A DNA stretch of 64,000 nt from Escherichia phage RB16, in sequence record NC_014467.1. One strand, 5' to 3'. Below are positions 23,859-62,750 of the stretch, piece by piece. Each line of letters starts with the position of its first letter. Positions within the stretch are counted from its first letter, which is position 1. The notes under the pieces were generated by a model that worked only from the letters and a program-made list of their open reading frames with translations, did not search any database and was not told the DNA's origin. The position numbers were made by a program, and so were the translations under genes.

Positions 23859-23933
23859 AAAAGCCCCTTGCATGAGTAAGGGGCTTTTGTTATATTACAA
23901 ACATCGAAACGAAACAGACAAAAGGAACATCCC
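23859..23933 (+). promoter_or_regulatory. promoter/stem-loop cassette (PeSL-like): hairpin AGCCCCTTGCATGAGTAAGGGGCT with -35 TTGCAT, 17-bp spacer, -10 TATATT, leader CATCGAAACGAAACAG
   Basis: Read directly; same architecture recurs at least 6 more times. Confidence 0.6.
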
Positions 23934-24206
23934 ATGCAAATCACTAAAGAACTCGAAGGCAAAGTAATCGTTCTGGTAAATGAAGACCGTTTGGCACAAC
24001 TGGGTAACGGTGGTGAAAAACTGCCAGCGGACGCACTCGAAAGCCTTTCTAAAATGCGCGTGATGCGTGTTACTGACGGTTGGGTTACTTGTCTGCCTCT
24101 GAACGACGAAGACAAAGCCGTATACGATGCACAAGCGGATTCATGGGATATCGAAGTACCTCTGGTAAACATCGAAGTTGAAGAGTGCTACGAAATCGAA
24201 AAATAA
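23934..24206 (+). CDS. hypothetical acidic protein (90 aa)
   Basis: ORF downstream of promoter cassette. Confidence 0.45.
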   Translation: MQITKELEGKVIVLVNEDRLAQLGNGGEKLPADALESLSKMRVMRVTDGWVTCLPLNDEDKAVYDAQADSWDIEVPLVNIEVEECYEIEK

Positions 24207-24267
24207 TGCTTGCTTCCTGGGTAATGTAGTGGTACATTACCCATATCGAAACGAAAGGAGAAACATC
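24205..24267 (+). promoter_or_regulatory. promoter/stem-loop cassette variant (TTGCTT-17-TACATT with hairpin GGGTAATGTA...TACATTACCC and CGAAACGAAAGGAG leader)
   Basis: Read directly. Confidence 0.45.
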
Positions 24268-24447
24268 ATGAAAATTATGCACACTGCAAATCAACTTCAA
24301 AACGGCAACTACGCTATCCACGATGCTATCGGTGCGCTGGTTGGGGTTTATCTTCATGGTATCAAACTCCTTGAAGTAAGTGGGAATACCTTTTATGGTG
24401 TTGAAAACATCGAAGCAGCGATGGAAATTATCGGTGACCTGAAATGA
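24268..24447 (+). CDS. hypothetical protein (~59 aa)
   Basis: Start after AGGAGA RBS; ORF-track N-terminal extension overlaps the hairpin. Confidence 0.4.
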   Translation: MKIMHTANQLQNGNYAIHDAIGALVGVYLHGIKLLEVSGNTFYGVENIEAAMEIIGDLK

Positions 24448-24635
24448 GTAAGAAACTCGAAATATTCGAAACTATCAGCGAAGACCCTAATCATCGCTGG
24501 TGCTGTGCGAAAACTGGTTTTGATGCTGCATGGGGTGATACTCCAGAACAGGCGCGTAAAAACTGGGAACACCAACAATTGTTTTTTGCCTGTCGGGTTC
24601 CTACCAATTATGAGGGGAGTCAATTGTTAGCATGA
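24444..24635 (+). CDS. hypothetical protein (63 aa)
   Basis: ORF track, 4-nt overlap chain. Confidence 0.4.
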   Translation: MSKKLEIFETISEDPNHRWCCAKTGFDAAWGDTPEQARKNWEHQQLFFACRVPTNYEGSQLLA

Positions 24636-24928
24636 AAAATAAAGAATATGACCCAATAGAAGTTAAAGAGCGGTTATCGGTAGCAAGAAGATTCCTTGAA
24701 TCTATCGACCCTGATAAACTTGGAAAATGCCCTGATACGATTTGCCTTAATTGTGGGCGATCCGTAATGGTTGGAAAGTGCTGTGATAATCAGAATATCG
24801 TTATCATGGACAGGAAAGAAGTTTCACCGGAAGTGTGGGATCGGATTCAAGAGATCATCAAAAACCCACCTGAACCGACGAAACGTTTACGCGAACTTAT
24901 GAGCAGGAAACCACGTTATGAAAAATGA
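24632..24928 (+). CDS. hypothetical Cys-containing protein (98 aa)
   Basis: ORF track; CPDTICLNCG...CC motif. Confidence 0.45.
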   Translation: MKNKEYDPIEVKERLSVARRFLESIDPDKLGKCPDTICLNCGRSVMVGKCCDNQNIVIMDRKEVSPEVWDRIQEIIKNPPEPTKRLRELMSRKPRYEK

Positions 24929-25292
24929 ACCAAGTAAGACTGTGCGCCTTATCCGTTGGGAAGGCAACGAACTCCGTTATGAAGACGGCGACCGCGAATT
25001 CGTCCATGAAATGCTTGCGCATAATCTGGGATTCAAAAACGCCGCACTGGTGATGATGCAACAAACCAGCGATGAAGACACCTGGCAATGCGTCATTCTC
25101 GATCTGGACAAAAACAAGGAATACACCGAAGATGAACTGTTTGCGCTCACAGAGAACGCTACAGCGCGTCAGAAGTGCTTCATGATCGATATGCCTCGCG
25201 AGAACTACGAGAATATCAAGAAAGCCCGTAAACAGAACAAGAACAACGTGTTCGACCTGTTCATGGGCTATCATGAAGAAACTACGGCCTAA
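24918..25292 (+). CDS. hypothetical protein (124 aa)
   Basis: ORF track. Confidence 0.45.
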   Translation: MKNEPSKTVRLIRWEGNELRYEDGDREFVHEMLAHNLGFKNAALVMMQQTSDEDTWQCVILDLDKNKEYTEDELFALTENATARQKCFMIDMPRENYENIKKARKQNKNNVFDLFMGYHEETTA

Positions 25293-61205: not shown

Positions 61206-61290
61206 GATGATTTCCTTTTTGTCTGTTTCGTTTCGATGTGTGTAATATAACAAAACCACTCACCATAGGCAAGGGGTTTCTTTAACAAAA
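61206..61290 (-). promoter_or_regulatory. promoter/stem-loop cassette (TTGCCT, 17-bp spacer, TATATT, leader CACACATCGAAACGAAACAGACAAAAAGGAAATC)
   Basis: Read on minus strand. Confidence 0.55.
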
Positions 61291-61298
61291 AGTGCTAT

Positions 61299-61901
61299 TT
61301 AATAGTATCCCGGATCTTTGAAGTGTGCTTTCACATATCGCAGAATTTCATGAAGCATCTGAGTTTGCTCATGTCCACGTTGTGAAGCCATATCGATCAT
61401 GACGCGAGTCATTTCGACGTTCTCCAGGCTCGCTATACGCTGTTTTAAGGCTTCGTTTTCCTTTTCCAACTCAACCATACGGTTGTATGCGTTGACTCGC
61501 TCCAGAGGCATATCAGGGCGCTCTTTGAGGACACGGGCGCGGGAAACTTCACATTCATGGTTTGCTTTCCAGTGATCACGTTCACCAGCAAGTTTATCGT
61601 TCTCCTGATGTAGACGCACAATCTCTTTAAGGAGGCGTTCAGTGGTATCAGGATCAAACGAAACCATATACTGCATCAACGATTCCAGCCACATATTCTC
61701 TTGAACTGACTGCACCGCTTTAGGCCCGATAATGGTAAACGCGCGTTTCTTCATGTTGCTACCGCAACCGTAGTTAACGTTACCCGTAATCGAACCTGGT
61801 TGATTCGTACCATCCCACTTGTCACCGATAACAGGTTTTACTTGCTGAATAGCACGATTCAGCATTTCGAATTCTTCATCTAAAATCATTTCATATCCCA
61901 T
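61299..61901 (-). CDS. hypothetical coiled-coil protein (200 aa)
   Basis: ORF track. Confidence 0.5.
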   Translation of the reverse strand: MGYEMILDEEFEMLNRAIQQVKPVIGDKWDGTNQPGSITGNVNYGCGSNMKKRAFTIIGPKAVQSVQENMWLESLMQYMVSFDPDTTERLLKEIVRLHQENDKLAGERDHWKANHECEVSRARVLKERPDMPLERVNAYNRMVELEKENEALKQRIASLENVEMTRVMIDMASQRGHEQTQMLHEILRYVKAHFKDPGYY

Positions 61902-62290
61902 AATTCATATTGTGAGCGAAGGATAGCGTAAAGGCTACCGATATGGATTGTGTCTACCGGACACTGGAAAAGATCCCCGCGCATCATGTTAAACTCGATA
62001 TCGTTACGTTCAACATAGTTACCGATCATTGATGTCCAACCCATCACCAGGTTGTAACCATCTTCTGATAACCCATAAGCCAGCCTAACCATGATACAAC
62101 GCTTATCAGCCAGTTCTACGCGCATATGGGTACTGGTATGAGTGACCTTGTTCGGGAATCTGCGAAACATTTTAGTAAGGAGTTTGGCGGTTTCAATATT
62201 GAACGCCAGTTCTTGATCCTTACTGGTCTGGTTATCATGACGACGATCCAGATATTTCTTCATTTTCGGATTCAGATTCACATGTTGCAT
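61886..62290 (-). CDS. hypothetical protein (134 aa)
   Basis: ORF track. Confidence 0.45.
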   Translation of the reverse strand: MQHVNLNPKMKKYLDRRHDNQTSKDQELAFNIETAKLLTKMFRRFPNKVTHTSTHMRVELADKRCIMVRLAYGLSEDGYNLVMGWTSMIGNYVERNDIEFNMMRGDLFQCPVDTIHIGSLYAILRSQYELWDMK

Positions 62291-62499
62291 AATATATCCC
62301 TCACAGGTTTATAACGTTCTTTTCCAGTGCCGTTGCATGAACTGCATTTTGGCGATCCGTAGTTATCATATCGCCCAGACCCATTACATGCAACACATTT
62401 CCGTAATTTACAGCCATACACGAACCGATTATTACATGCGGTTCGTGCTGCCTTGCGCTCATGGAAGTTCATACTTTGTTGTACACCTGAACAACCCAC
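62278..62499 (-). CDS. DnaJ-type zinc-finger mini-protein (two CxxCxGxG repeats)
   Basis: CVACNGSG and CSSCNGTG motifs. Confidence 0.5.
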   Translation of the reverse strand: MGCSGVQQSMNFHERKAARTACNNRFVYGCKLRKCVACNGSGRYDNYGSPKCSSCNGTGKERYKPVRDILCNM

Positions 62500-62672
62500 A
62501 TTTCGATATTTGGTGAGTAAGTAACGTTCACCATCGGCATAGTGCGGTATTTGTAAGCGGCTTTGTACGCGTCAAGTTCAGTCGGAACACAGAAAGAGAA
62601 ACCGTCGTCATAACGTTCTGCGTTAGAAACTTCACAACCAACTACAGCAGCAATATTTTTGTTCATGTTCAT
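62469..62672 (-). CDS. hypothetical protein (67 aa)
   Basis: ORF downstream of promoter cassette. Confidence 0.45.
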   Translation of the reverse strand: MNMNKNIAAVVGCEVSNAERYDDGFSFCVPTELDAYKAAYKYRTMPMVNVTYSPNIEMWVVQVYNKV

Positions 62673-62750
62673 GATGTTTTCCTTTCTGTGTTTCGTTTCG
62701 ATGTGTGTAATATAACAAAGCCCTTACAGTAATACAAGGGCTTTTTCAAT
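62673..62750 (-). promoter_or_regulatory. promoter/stem-loop cassette (TTGTAT in hairpin AGCCCTTGTATTACTGTAAGGGCT, 17-bp spacer, TATATT)
   Basis: Read on minus strand. Confidence 0.55.

Follow-up and report, generated by a model that had tools for sequence, protein, structure and literature searches.

The window analysed here, a stretch of 64,000 nucleotides from Escherichia phage RB16 (NC_014467.1), contains repeated intergenic elements that are real, compact switches predicted to end the transcription of one gene and to restart it for the next. The window comes from an RB43-like Pseudotevenvirus, a T4-type phage, and not from one of the RB49-type phages to which an earlier note had likened its elements. 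Its cassettes belong to a known kind, that of promoter-early-stem-loops (PeSLs) and promoter-coupled terminators, and some of their parts also occur in T1-like phages. Each element is probably a composite of an intrinsic terminator and an early promoter used by host sigma-70.

Build and repetition of the elements

All seven sites of the earlier note were found where it placed them, and all seven have the arrangement TTGnnn-17 bp-TAnnnT, in agreement with the exact 17-bp spacer that it reported. Six of them share a build, termed class B, in which a hairpin of A-run, GC-stem and T-run, with the form AGCCCCTTG...AAGGGGCT, bears a TTGCAT-like -35 whose TTG lies inside the 5′ arm. The seventh, site 2, departs from the description of a -35 within a GC hairpin, as its hairpin is unlike the others and lies over the -10 instead. 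Similarly, the -10 is TATATT or TATTAT in the six class-B cassettes, but TACATT at site 2. The leader, which had been called conserved throughout, has an exact core (ATCGAAACGAAAC) in cassettes 1, 6 and 7, but is diverged in cassette 3, truncated at site 2 and absent from cassettes 4 and 5. A purine-rich Shine-Dalgarno (SD) sequence and an ATG follow, the latter 28-38 nt past the -10 rather than the roughly 40 nt first given, and the AT-rich region upstream holds a stop codon. The sites are as follows.

23840-23936, plus strand: cassette 1, class B, between the DNA ligase gene gp30 and a 90-aa ORF; upstream stop TAA 23840-23842; 20-bp upstream block AAATAGCACTTTTTGCTAAA 23841-23860; hairpin 23859-23888; -35 TTGCAT 23868-23873; -10 TATATT 23891-23896; predicted +1 at about A23903, the first base of the leader core; ATG 23934-23936
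24204-24270, plus strand: site 2, promoter of other build; -35 TTGCTT 24210-24215; -10 TACATT 24233-24238; hairpin GGGTAATGTA/TACATTACCC 24219-24242, overlapping the -10 and not the -35; short leader ATATCGAAACGAAAGGAG; ATG 24268-24270
33444-33527, minus strand: cassette 3, class B; upstream stop 33525-33527; hairpin 33491-33523; -35 TTGCAT 33508-33513; -10 TATATT 33485-33490; diverged leader; ATG 33444-33446
45599-45679, minus strand: cassette 4, class B; hairpin 45645-45674; -35 TTGCGT 45661-45666; -10 TATTAT 45638-45643; unrelated leader; ATG 45599-45601
45707-45740: second, plain hairpin upstream of cassette 4
50959-51031, minus strand: cassette 5, class B; stop 51029-51031; hairpin 50997-51026; -35 TTGCAT 51013-51018; -10 TATTAT 50990-50995; leader of its own; ATG 50959-50961
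61203-61301, minus strand: cassette 6, class B; stop 61299-61301; 20-bp block 61281-61300; hairpin 61252-61280; -35 TTGCCT 61267-61272; -10 TATATT 61244-61249; leader; ATG 61203-61205 (frd.1-like ORF)
62670-62753, minus strand: cassette 7, class B; stop 62751-62753; hairpin 62713-62748; -35 TTGTAT 62732-62737; -10 TATATT 62709-62714; leader; ATG 62670-62672

Related promoters that were absent from the earlier note were also observed.

40267-40345, minus strand: promoter with the same leader, without the hairpin; -35 TTGCAT 40328-40333; -10 TACCTT 40305-40310; leader core 40286-40298; ATG 40267-40269
60029-60100, minus strand: promoter without a class-B hairpin; -35 TTGCGC 60085-60090; -10 TATCTT 60062-60067; diverged leader; ATG 60029-60031
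60686-60762, minus strand: degraded cassette (‘half PeSL’), in which no -35 was found at a usable distance; -10-like TATTGT; leader ACACACATCGAAACGAAGGAGG 60697-60709; ATG 60686-60688; flanked by a 164-bp segment (60763-60926) found only in the window
19776-19898, plus strand: uncoupled terminator and promoter, for comparison; plain terminator 19776-19799; promoter 26 nt later, TTGCAC (19826-19831)-17-TATCTT (19849-19854); ATG 19896-19898

Counted as TTG-N20-TAnnnT with a hairpin of 10 or more pairs across it, composite sites number seven in the window; in 100 dinucleotide shuffles the mean was 0.8 and the maximum 5. The leader 13-mer, allowing up to two mismatches, was found 12 times where 3.05 occurrences are expected, and at least six promoters of the window carry, after the -10, the consensus CAtcgaaac.aaa...ggaaaa of a promoter module of T1-like phages. 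The cassette is also the top repeat family of the window in an unbiased repeat search, and a scan that starts from hairpins recovered exactly six class-B hairpins and no more of that type. Since the -35 hexamers match TTGACA at only 3/6 positions (the -10 hexamers match at 4-5/6), and since a generic sigma-70 scan found the region no different from shuffles (41 vs 42.3; 50 vs 41), the promoter assignment rests on phage-specific conservation. A search of the whole window with Rfam, at the gathering score, matched two tRNAs only (17781-17854 and 17863-17935), and the cassettes match no family.

The ORFs on either side of each cassette are co-directional, and the cassette points the same way, with the stop codon of the upstream gene 0-19 nt 5′ of the hairpin at cassettes 1, 3, 5, 6 and 7. 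Small ORFs, which the earlier note called accessory, flank the elements on both strands, and PHROGs assigns all ten downstream ORFs to families of unknown function. No cassettes lie in the baseplate block (25.3-32.5 kb) or in the first 23.8 kb of the window.

Positional conservation and a possible role in gene shuffling

Absence from syntenic relatives, which the earlier note would have counted against the elements, was not observed: the cassettes hold their positions across five genomes, namely the window, RB43, Miller, IME-CF2 and Lw1. The note had further credited such elements with driving both early transcription and modular gene shuffling, and had proposed a test of whether pairs of them flank gene indels between related phages. 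Of these roles, gene shuffling is weakly supported in the window. One clean case was found, in which Miller and IME-CF2 have an extra ORF between two copies of promoter plus leader and the window has a single copy.

In its strong form, the PeSL model would make the cassettes mainly mobile recombination modules, excised as mini-circles and reinserted, that are the main cause of the mosaicism of the region (its best relative covers 82% in 13 pieces), with regulation secondary. We consider this unlikely, although several observations besides the clean indel speak for it. Mini-circles have been demonstrated for the PeSLs of phi1/RB49. Site 2 is a chimera when set against RB43, Miller and IME-CF2, where the locus has a class-B hairpin together with the same -10 and leader, and in the promoter at 40267-40345 the homology to Lw1, Miller and IME-CF2 breaks within the leader (40295/40296). 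The hairpin of cassette 4 is a conserved island whose flanks on both sides (45408-45784) are non-homologous to 4/4 relatives. Cassette 6 is a full-length paralogue of cassette 1, and the likeness of these units from stop codon to ATG argues for copying as a unit, while cassettes 6 and 7 are joined by a 31-nt exact direct repeat, 1,465 bp apart.

However, the enrichment of homology breakpoints at gene boundaries that bear an element (7/9, compared with 40/89 other boundaries; OR 4.3) is not significant (one-sided Fisher p=0.062). Because 40 of the 89 cassette-free boundaries also break, most junctions lie at ordinary gene boundaries, and 40 of the 47 boundaries with a breakpoint have no cassette. 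Homing-endonuclease genes account for several indels, including three large ones that consist of HNH-AP2 genes, and larger recombination patches disregard the borders of the cassettes, which stay put across the five genomes. One such patch spans 2.4 kb or more (22.9-25.3 kb, up to the end of the compared region) and is ~100% identical to phage EC-F1; an apparent allele swap after cassette 1 was rejected as a cassette event, since it is part of this patch and is not bounded by cassettes. We regard recombination as a by-product of elements whose primary function lies elsewhere. They can act as substrates for the homologous recombination of the phage because exact identity between several of them runs to 23-31 nt, and identity over 40-97 nt is 75-93%.

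Hairpin RNA and the probable coupling of terminator to promoter

The six class-B hairpins have 12-15 pairs and sense-strand RNA folding energies of -11 to -21.5 kcal/mol. The 33 copies in the five genomes correspond to 25 distinct hairpins in which pairing is kept, with two-sided covariation at positions -5 (A-T in 18, G-C in 5), -4 (C-G in 14, G-C in 9) and +4 (A-T in 6, C-G in 3, G-C in 3). In 21/25 hairpins the sense RNA is more stable than the antisense RNA, by virtue of G.U wobbles opposite the TTG. This strand asymmetry points to a function at the RNA level on the transcribed strand.

These patterns bear on the idea that the palindrome is mainly an operator in the DNA, where a phage or host repressor or activator of early promoters would bind over the -35, and is no terminator. 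A palindrome centred on the -35 has the classical position of an operator, the stems have a conserved core (CCCTTGC/GCAAGGG), and the palindrome of a terminator can at the same time be a binding site for LexA (Fletcher et al., bioRxiv 10.64898/2026.08.19.745784). Nevertheless, we judge this idea improbable: pairing is kept by compensatory changes and by wobbles available only to the sense RNA, and the A-run and T-run flanks are features of terminators. Moreover, the sequences of 3′ arm and loop vary among the 25 hairpins, whereas a sequence-specific protein site would keep the sequence of both arms.

T4-type phages process their early mRNAs extensively, and the selection on sense-strand RNA structure, together with poor U-tails in some hairpins (the tail of cassette 3 is poor in T residues), would also suit 3′-end stabilisers or RNase III/RNase E processing sites of polycistronic early mRNAs with promoters as independent neighbours. 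This reading is slightly less probable still, as an A-run, GC-stem and U-run in this order make up the canonical layout of an intrinsic terminator, both TransTerm and a terminator scan call terminators, and the hairpin and the -10 are in fixed register, exactly 17 bp from the embedded TTG. Because of this register, terminator and promoter are physically integrated beyond mere adjacency. In the terminator scan the class-B hairpins rank top, although those of cassettes 6 and 7 are weak as terminators (-11 to -13 kcal/mol).

Predictions for RB43 agree with a composite of terminator and promoter. Early promoters and TransTerm terminators of that phage were listed separately (Nolan 2006, PMC1524935, Additional files 3 and 6), and the orthologues of cassettes 1, 3, 5 and 6 stand in both lists, with the terminator nested within the promoter span (Pe:57694 with terminator 57704-57725, Pe:67362 with 67332-67352, Pe:85900 with 85869-85890 and Pe:95419 with 95389-95409, respectively). 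The orthologues of sites 2, 4 and 7 are in the promoter list only. Overall, at least 12 of the 43 promoter spans hold a TransTerm terminator at a fixed offset. In the predicted RB43 promoters, position -33 is G and position -36 is either G or C, which agrees with the (C)TTGCAT of the window. The text of that paper is silent on the overlap of promoters and terminators, draws no link to PeSLs and has no covariation analysis. In the deposited Miller sequence, the hairpins, including the one at the cassette 1 locus, are labelled as terminators.

Initiation, termination, timing and recombination frequency we infer from sequence. Each element is packed into an intergenic space of 70-100 bp, with the stop codon of one gene at one end and the start codon of the following, co-directional gene at the other. 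An RNA polymerase that comes in from upstream would transcribe the A-run/GC-stem/U-run hairpin and stop in the U-tract, ~10-12 nt before the next start site. For initiation, the A-run would lie at -44 to -40, the usual place of UP-like A-tracts, the 5′ arm of the hairpin would provide the -35 (C)TTGCAT, and the T-tract, often with a TGn end, would close the 17-bp spacer before the -10 (TATATT or TATTAT). The A of ATCGAAACGAAAC is the predicted first transcribed base, and starts are expected at about 23903, 33478, 45631, 50983, 61237 and 62702. The resulting 5′ UTR would be short, purine-rich and unstructured, and would contain the SD. In this way a string of small accessory genes could become insulated early transcription units, and recombination between two cassettes might occasionally lead to the loss, gain or exchange of the gene between them.

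PeSLs have been described in phi1/RB49 (Arbiol et al. 2010, PMC2839356) and in PST/T4 and nt-1/KVP40 (Comeau et al. 2014, PMC4122927). Promoter and terminator activity was shown in phi1/RB49 via lacZ fusions, and the five positional subclasses include ‘SLS overlapping the -35’ (Arbiol 2010, PMC2839356). For the RB43-like lineage, this literature has only ‘PeSL-like sequences’ near g43 (PMC2839356 / PMC4122927). The likeness to PeSLs that the earlier note proposed extends to every defining feature testable in silico. Both kinds of element join an early sigma-70-type promoter with an N17 spacer to a stem-loop, and extend between the stop codon of the gene before and the SD and start codon of the gene after; both are multi-copy, in hyperplastic regions and beside small ORFs of unknown function. 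PeSLs are at times found at indel borders, as is one clean case in the window. Unlike in PeSLs, one stereotyped subclass dominates in the window, with the -35 inside a stem flanked by A-run and T-run; its -35 is TTGCAT-like (3/6 matches) where that of RB49 PeSLs is near-consensus, the leader is strongly conserved, as is the 20-bp upstream block at two sites, and the association with indels is weak.

In chromosomal promoter-coupled terminators of A. baumannii, E. coli and B. subtilis, the dual use of the -35/stem-loop and of the T-tract was shown by mutagenesis, with a modal distance of 10 bp between termination site (TTS) and start site (TSS) (Fletcher, ..., Grainger 2026, bioRxiv 10.64898/2026.08.19.745784). 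There too, stem-loop DNA forms the -35, the T-tract lies just before the -10 and the TTS ~10 bp upstream of the TSS, between tandem genes. The criterion is a same-strand intrinsic terminator with the TTS at most 35 bp upstream of the TSS; in cassette 1, the U-tract (23885-23893), the -10 (23891-23896) and the predicted +1 (about 23903) would give ~10-12 nt. Those terminators are individually diverse in sequence, whereas the window elements are a sequence family with a shared leader, whose geometry and function are predicted. The paper names neither phages nor PeSLs.

Site 2 was also considered as a MotA-dependent middle promoter or PmSL. Mot boxes are defined as (a/t)3TGCTTtA centred at -30, 11-13 bp from the -10, with motA in the genome (Comeau 2014, PMC4122927). 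This candidate was rejected, as site 2 has AATGCTTGC but 19 nt from TACATT. The RB43 genome lacks motA as well as middle promoters (Nolan 2006, PMC1524935).

Parts shared with T1-like phages

Unexpectedly, the leader and, at cassettes 1 and 6, the 20-bp upstream block are the segments that stay invariant in a promoter family of T1-like phages (Drexlerviridae). The family is multi-copy, and we found no description of it in the searchable literature. Working from public sequences, we defined this module by three features: the block AAATAGCACTTTTTGYTAAA, a distance of 21 nt between the TTGYTA of the block and the -10, and the leader CATCGAAACGAA. The distance is 21 nt in 114/138 instances on Drexlerviridae-type contigs. 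These promoters have no canonical -35, and unrelated hairpins lie between block and -10. The T4-like copies, with 32-33 nt, are longer here by about one helical turn, and a true -35 comes with their longer stem. Membership of the window elements in the Drexlerviridae-type module was rejected, since cassettes 1 and 6 are the only sites of the window that have the block, and the distance there is 32-33 and not 21 nt; the leader of the module is present at six sites. Instead, they are hybrids that share modules with this family. The flanking genes of the two are unrelated. The same parts are found in RB43-like phages and in the single KP15/Slopekvirus-like genome inspected, and the flanking genes are not carried along.

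Tentatively, then, the cassettes may be hybrids that draw on a regulatory module able to pass between phage families, made up of the block AAATAGCACTTTTTGYTAAA and the initial transcribed/5′-UTR segment ATCGAAACGAA..., although we would not call this probable. If it were true, ‘stop-terminator-promoter-leader-start’ units, or parts of them, would be exchanged horizontally among unrelated virulent phages of shared hosts, and the 20-bp block would be the site of a candidate host factor. As many as three frames meet a stop codon in the block. Within it, TAGCACTTTTTGCTA agrees at 13/15 positions with YAGHAWATTWTDCTR, which we take to be the SELEX consensus of Lrp. Alternatively, the block could be an alpha-CTD/UP-type site, acting at -42 or one helical turn further upstream.

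Anatomy and recurrence of the promoter cassettes

All seven sites for which the earlier note had proposed a repeated promoter/stem-loop cassette were found in the window, and the exact 17-bp spacer that it described, from TTGnnn to the -10 hexamer, is present at every one of them (7/7). The common build holds for six sites, here called class B, in which a hairpin carries the embedded -35 element, but not for site 2, which has another hairpin.

23840..23936 (+), cassette 1, class B
24204..24270 (+), site 2, promoter of different build
33444..33527 (-), cassette 3, class B
45599..45679 (-), cassette 4, class B
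50959..51031 (-), cassette 5, class B
61203..61301 (-), cassette 6, class B
62670..62753 (-), cassette 7, class B

In class B elements an A-run precedes a GC stem, the 5′ arm of which has CCTTGC at its end and contains the TTG of the -35. A 3-8-nt loop separates this arm from its complement, after which come a T-run and TATATT or TATTAT. A hairpin-first scan that presupposed no promoter returned just these six CCCTTGC-type hairpins in the window. Site 2 reads TTGCTT-17-TACATT, and the 3′ arm of its hairpin (24219-24242) is the -10. The leader core ATCGAAACGAAAC, from the segment after the -10 that had been described as conserved, has its exact sequence at sites 1, 6 and 7; site 3 has a diverged form, site 2 a shortened one, and sites 4 and 5 have none. 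Leader-bearing promoters, exact or diverged, also occur without a class-B hairpin at 40.3 kb and 60.07 kb, and a degraded copy of the leader promoter lies at 60.7 kb.

Seven composite sites were counted, whereas 100 dinucleotide shuffles gave 0.8 on average and never more than 5; the leader 13-mer has 12 matches (3.05 expected), and CCTTG-N20-TAYWAT is found 18 times (3.9 expected). The cassette is the top repeat family of the window in an unbiased repeat finder, by which the repeat in cassettes 1 and 6 extends from the stop codon of the preceding gene as far as the ATG (about 97 nt). Neither hairpin nor leader matches an Rfam family, and the ORFs downstream of the elements all (10/10) fall in PHROGs families of unknown function. 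With generic sigma-70 consensus scans the region was indistinguishable from shuffles and five of the six class-B promoters were missed; the -35 hexamers agree with TTGACA at only three of six positions.

The window belongs to an RB43-like T4-type phage (Pseudotevenvirus; megablast). In RB43, 43 early promoters were predicted with a phage-specific HMM, and these include the orthologues of sites 1-7 (Pe:57694, 58043, 67362, 79242, 85900, 95419 and 96875); MotA and middle promoters are absent (Nolan et al. 2006, PMC1524935). Site 2 is therefore not a MotA middle promoter, the lineage having no motA and the spacing being wrong. The same study lists the RB43 orthologues of the hairpins of cassettes 1, 3, 5 and 6 as TransTerm terminators. 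Overlaying its lists, we find that 12 or more of the 43 promoter spans enclose a terminator at a fixed offset, an overlap on which its text does not comment.

The earlier note had likened the cassettes to promoter-early stem-loops (PeSLs) of T4-type phages, and this was right in kind. Published PeSLs, for which promoter and terminator activity were demonstrated with lacZ fusions, have five stem-loop positions, overlap with the -35 among them (Arbiol 2010, PMC2839356), and the window cassettes share their anatomy. The cassettes are RB43-type PeSLs, new to a known class, with orthologues implicit in the 2006 predictions. The RB43-like genomes, about 180 of which are public, have been deposited without promoters, their hairpins at best labelled 'terminator'; recognizing the cassettes allows the early transcription units to be marked out for dozens of uncharacterized accessory genes.

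The hairpin as a probable terminator within the predicted promoter

The window and its syntenic counterparts in Lw1, RB43, Miller and IME-CF2 supplied 33 class-B copies for comparison, which reduce to 25 distinct hairpins. Across these five genomes pairing is kept though loops and 3′ arms differ, with two-sided covariation at positions -5 (A-T 18, G-C 5), -4 (C-G 14, G-C 9) and +4 (A-T 6, C-G 3, G-C 3). The partners of the invariant TTG are Watson-Crick in some hairpins and G.U in others, and because of this alternation 21 of the 25 fold more stably as sense than as antisense RNA. This asymmetry argues for an intrinsic terminator that would act in RNA from co-directional transcription, rather than a protein-binding DNA palindrome. 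The Miller annotation marks the cassette hairpins as terminators, and class-B hairpins rank top in an intrinsic-terminator scan of the window.

A similar arrangement is known from bacterial promoter-coupled terminators, in which the DNA of the stem-loop also serves as -35, a T-tract just upstream of the -10 boosts initiation, the termination site lies about 10 bp before the start site, and RNA polymerase bound at the promoter improves termination (Fletcher et al., bioRxiv 10.64898/2026.08.19.745784). The predicted geometry of cassette 1 is the same.

23885-23893 (+), U-tract
23891-23896 (+), -10
A23903 (+), predicted +1, first base of the leader core

Transcription is predicted to begin with the A of ATCGAAACG, roughly 7 nt past each -10. 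Given the anatomy shared with PeSLs and promoter-coupled terminators, we read each cassette as a putative insulator, which would close one early transcription unit and open the next, so that small accessory genes, singly or in short groups, could be expressed autonomously. The cassettes amount to a natural and very regular set of putative promoter-coupled terminators; since the hairpin register is fixed to the -35 and -10 and compensatory variants occur in nature, they suit tests of the polymerase-collision model of coupled termination.

The hairpin-first scan also revealed a second family of about a dozen near-identical tetraloop terminators, AAAGCCCC-(TTCG/GAAA)-GGGGCTTT, which lack a promoter and are usually followed directly by a Shine-Dalgarno sequence and ATG. 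Examples, on either strand, are:

476-493, tetraloop terminator
10780-10803, tetraloop terminator
30756-30777, tetraloop terminator
32476-32497, tetraloop terminator
39958-39975, tetraloop terminator
53230-53249, tetraloop terminator
56371-56392, tetraloop terminator

To judge from its sequence, the class-B hairpin looks like such a terminator with its stem extended by TTGC...GCAA. At 48743-48765 (-), a plain GC hairpin and T-run are immediately followed by TATAAATA, the T4-type late-promoter consensus, with an rI-like gene downstream. Here a terminator seems to be coupled to a late promoter; at the orthologous place in RB43, late promoter Pl:82323 overlaps terminator 82308-82322.

A putative promoter module in common with T1-like phages

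In blastn searches the 101-nt unit of cassette 6 recurs in 5-7 copies per Pseudotevenvirus genome and 4-6 copies per Slopekvirus-size Klebsiella myovirus, and gives near full-length matches of 73-76% in the T1-like siphoviruses KOX1, vB_EcoS-2004V, damhaus and ISF001, from four Drexlerviridae lineages. The alignment contains two conserved segments: an invariant 20-mer, AAATAGCACTTTTTGTTAAA, which begins at or overlaps the upstream stop codon, and the leader core TCATCGAAACGA, which differs at one site in two of these phages. The intervening hairpin is unrelated. The 20-bp block, AAATAGCACTTTTTGYTAAA, occurs twice in the window:

23841-23860 (+), block of cassette 1
61281-61300 (-), block of cassette 6

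When IMG/VR was scanned for the exact pattern, more than 120 stretches were obtained, at a density of at least six copies per 50-kb contig, and we analysed a set of 138 promoter-type instances. The distance from TTGYTA to the -10 is rigid (21 nt in 114 of the 138), a strong hairpin lies within the variable segment in 112, and the consensus leader is CAtcgaaac.aaa...ggaaaa. The leader CATCGAAACGA is common to this Drexlerviridae promoter family and the window promoters, and a profile built only from the 138-instance leaders has the six leader sites as its best six matches in the window. However, block and -10 are 32-33 nt apart in cassettes 1 and 6, one helical turn more than the Drexlerviridae 21 nt, and there the longer stem supplies a canonical -35.

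The genes flanking the module are not common to T4-like and T1-like phages, and the ORF after cassette 1 is found in T4-like genomes only. Transfer of cassette and gene together between the families is rejected, as neither the flanking ORFs of KOX1 nor the upstream ORF of vB_EcoS-2004V has a tblastn match in the window or the Lw1 region. A host origin is not supported: none of 5,426 complete E. coli genomes contains a match to the 101-nt unit, and the 19-mer occurs in bacterial genomes (596 Gb) only as scattered single copies.

As to the role of the 20-bp block, pairing of the T-tract with the Shine-Dalgarno region is seen in 62 of 138 minimum-free-energy folds and equally in 62 of 138 shuffled-leader controls, so an anti-Shine-Dalgarno role of the block in read-through RNA is rejected. 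By eye, spacing or consensus is unfit for a sigma-54, IHF, CRP or sigma-32 site. The block may resemble the Lrp consensus, with Lrp a candidate factor. We found no description of the block in the searchable open-access literature, no paper in a text-string search with its 15-mer (sequence logos in figures being unsearchable), and no report of PeSLs outside T4-like phages in the eight open-access papers that mention these elements. If real, the sharing of the module takes 'mobile regulatory cassettes' past one phage family and points to a putative conserved recognition site.

Cassettes and genome mosaicism

The genes of the window lie on the + strand to about 32.5 kb (gp27 excepted) and on the - strand thereafter. 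At 22900-25300 it matches Enterobacter phage EC-F1 (MN508623) with about 100% identity; at 23-35 kb Citrobacter phage IME-CF2 is the top megablast match (95%), followed by Miller and RB43 (91%); at 40-64 kb the top match is Lw1, yet it covers only 82%, in 13 pieces, which marks this region as mosaic and hyperplastic. Since the closest relatives differ by segment, the source genome is a patchwork of stretches from phages that were isolated on different enterobacterial genera.

The cassettes keep their positions in the syntenic relatives RB43, Miller, IME-CF2 and Lw1 rather than being mobile. Some cases speak for the proposed role in gene shuffling. In Miller and IME-CF2 an extra ORF, CPTMiller_0098, lies between two promoter+leader copies, where a single copy stands in the window, RB43 and Lw1. 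Site 2 and the class-B element found there in RB43, Miller and IME-CF2 have the same -10 and leader but different -35 halves; the homology break 40295/40296 lies inside a leader; the cassette 4 hairpin is a conserved island between flanks non-homologous to the relatives; and cassettes 6 and 7, which have a 31-nt exact direct repeat in common 1,465 bp apart, adjoin insertions or replacements. However, when homology breaks against the four relatives were mapped, breakpoints fell at 7 of 9 element-bearing and 40 of 89 element-free gene boundaries (OR 4.3, one-sided p=0.062), an enrichment of mosaic junctions at cassettes that is not significant. The ORF that follows cassette 1 is 100% identical to the EC-F1 allele, but an allele exchange bounded by cassettes is rejected, the identity being about 100% across the whole of 22.9-25.3 kb.

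Five free-standing, paralogous ORFs resemble HNH + AP2 homing endonucleases (Pfam, partly below gathering score):

1781-2311 (+), HNH-AP2 ORF
10765-11295 (+), HNH-AP2 ORF
21790-22341 (+), HNH-AP2 ORF
43414-43947 (-), HNH-AP2 ORF
51674-52234 (-), HNH-AP2 ORF

Three large segments present or absent relative to Lw1, RB43, Miller or IME-CF2 (21801-22314, 43431-44276 and 51652-52212) coincide with such genes, which therefore explain several non-cassette mosaic junctions. Because breaks are common elsewhere, and given these indels, the EC-F1 stretch and the fixed cassette positions, recombination at cassettes looks occasional, not dominant. Support for PeSL-mediated shuffling is modest, and the sharing of a promoter module between T4-like and T1-like phages is the more interesting lead and deserves follow-up.

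Some smaller features were also noted. The HNH-AP2 ORFs have 50-77-nt DNA repeats in common (D2, D5, D6). Adjoining one of them, in a segment absent or replaced in relatives, a 130-aa ORF at 43944-44336 (-) matches Pfam Phage_ProQ_C_like (E=5.8e-17). Rfam detects two tRNA genes:

17781-17854 (+), tRNA
17863-17935 (+), tRNA

The second (17861-17937) is missing in Lw1, RB43 and Miller, in which a single tRNA is annotated, and IME-CF2 is annotated with two (Gly, Met); from the sequences compared, this is a tRNA indel polymorphism.
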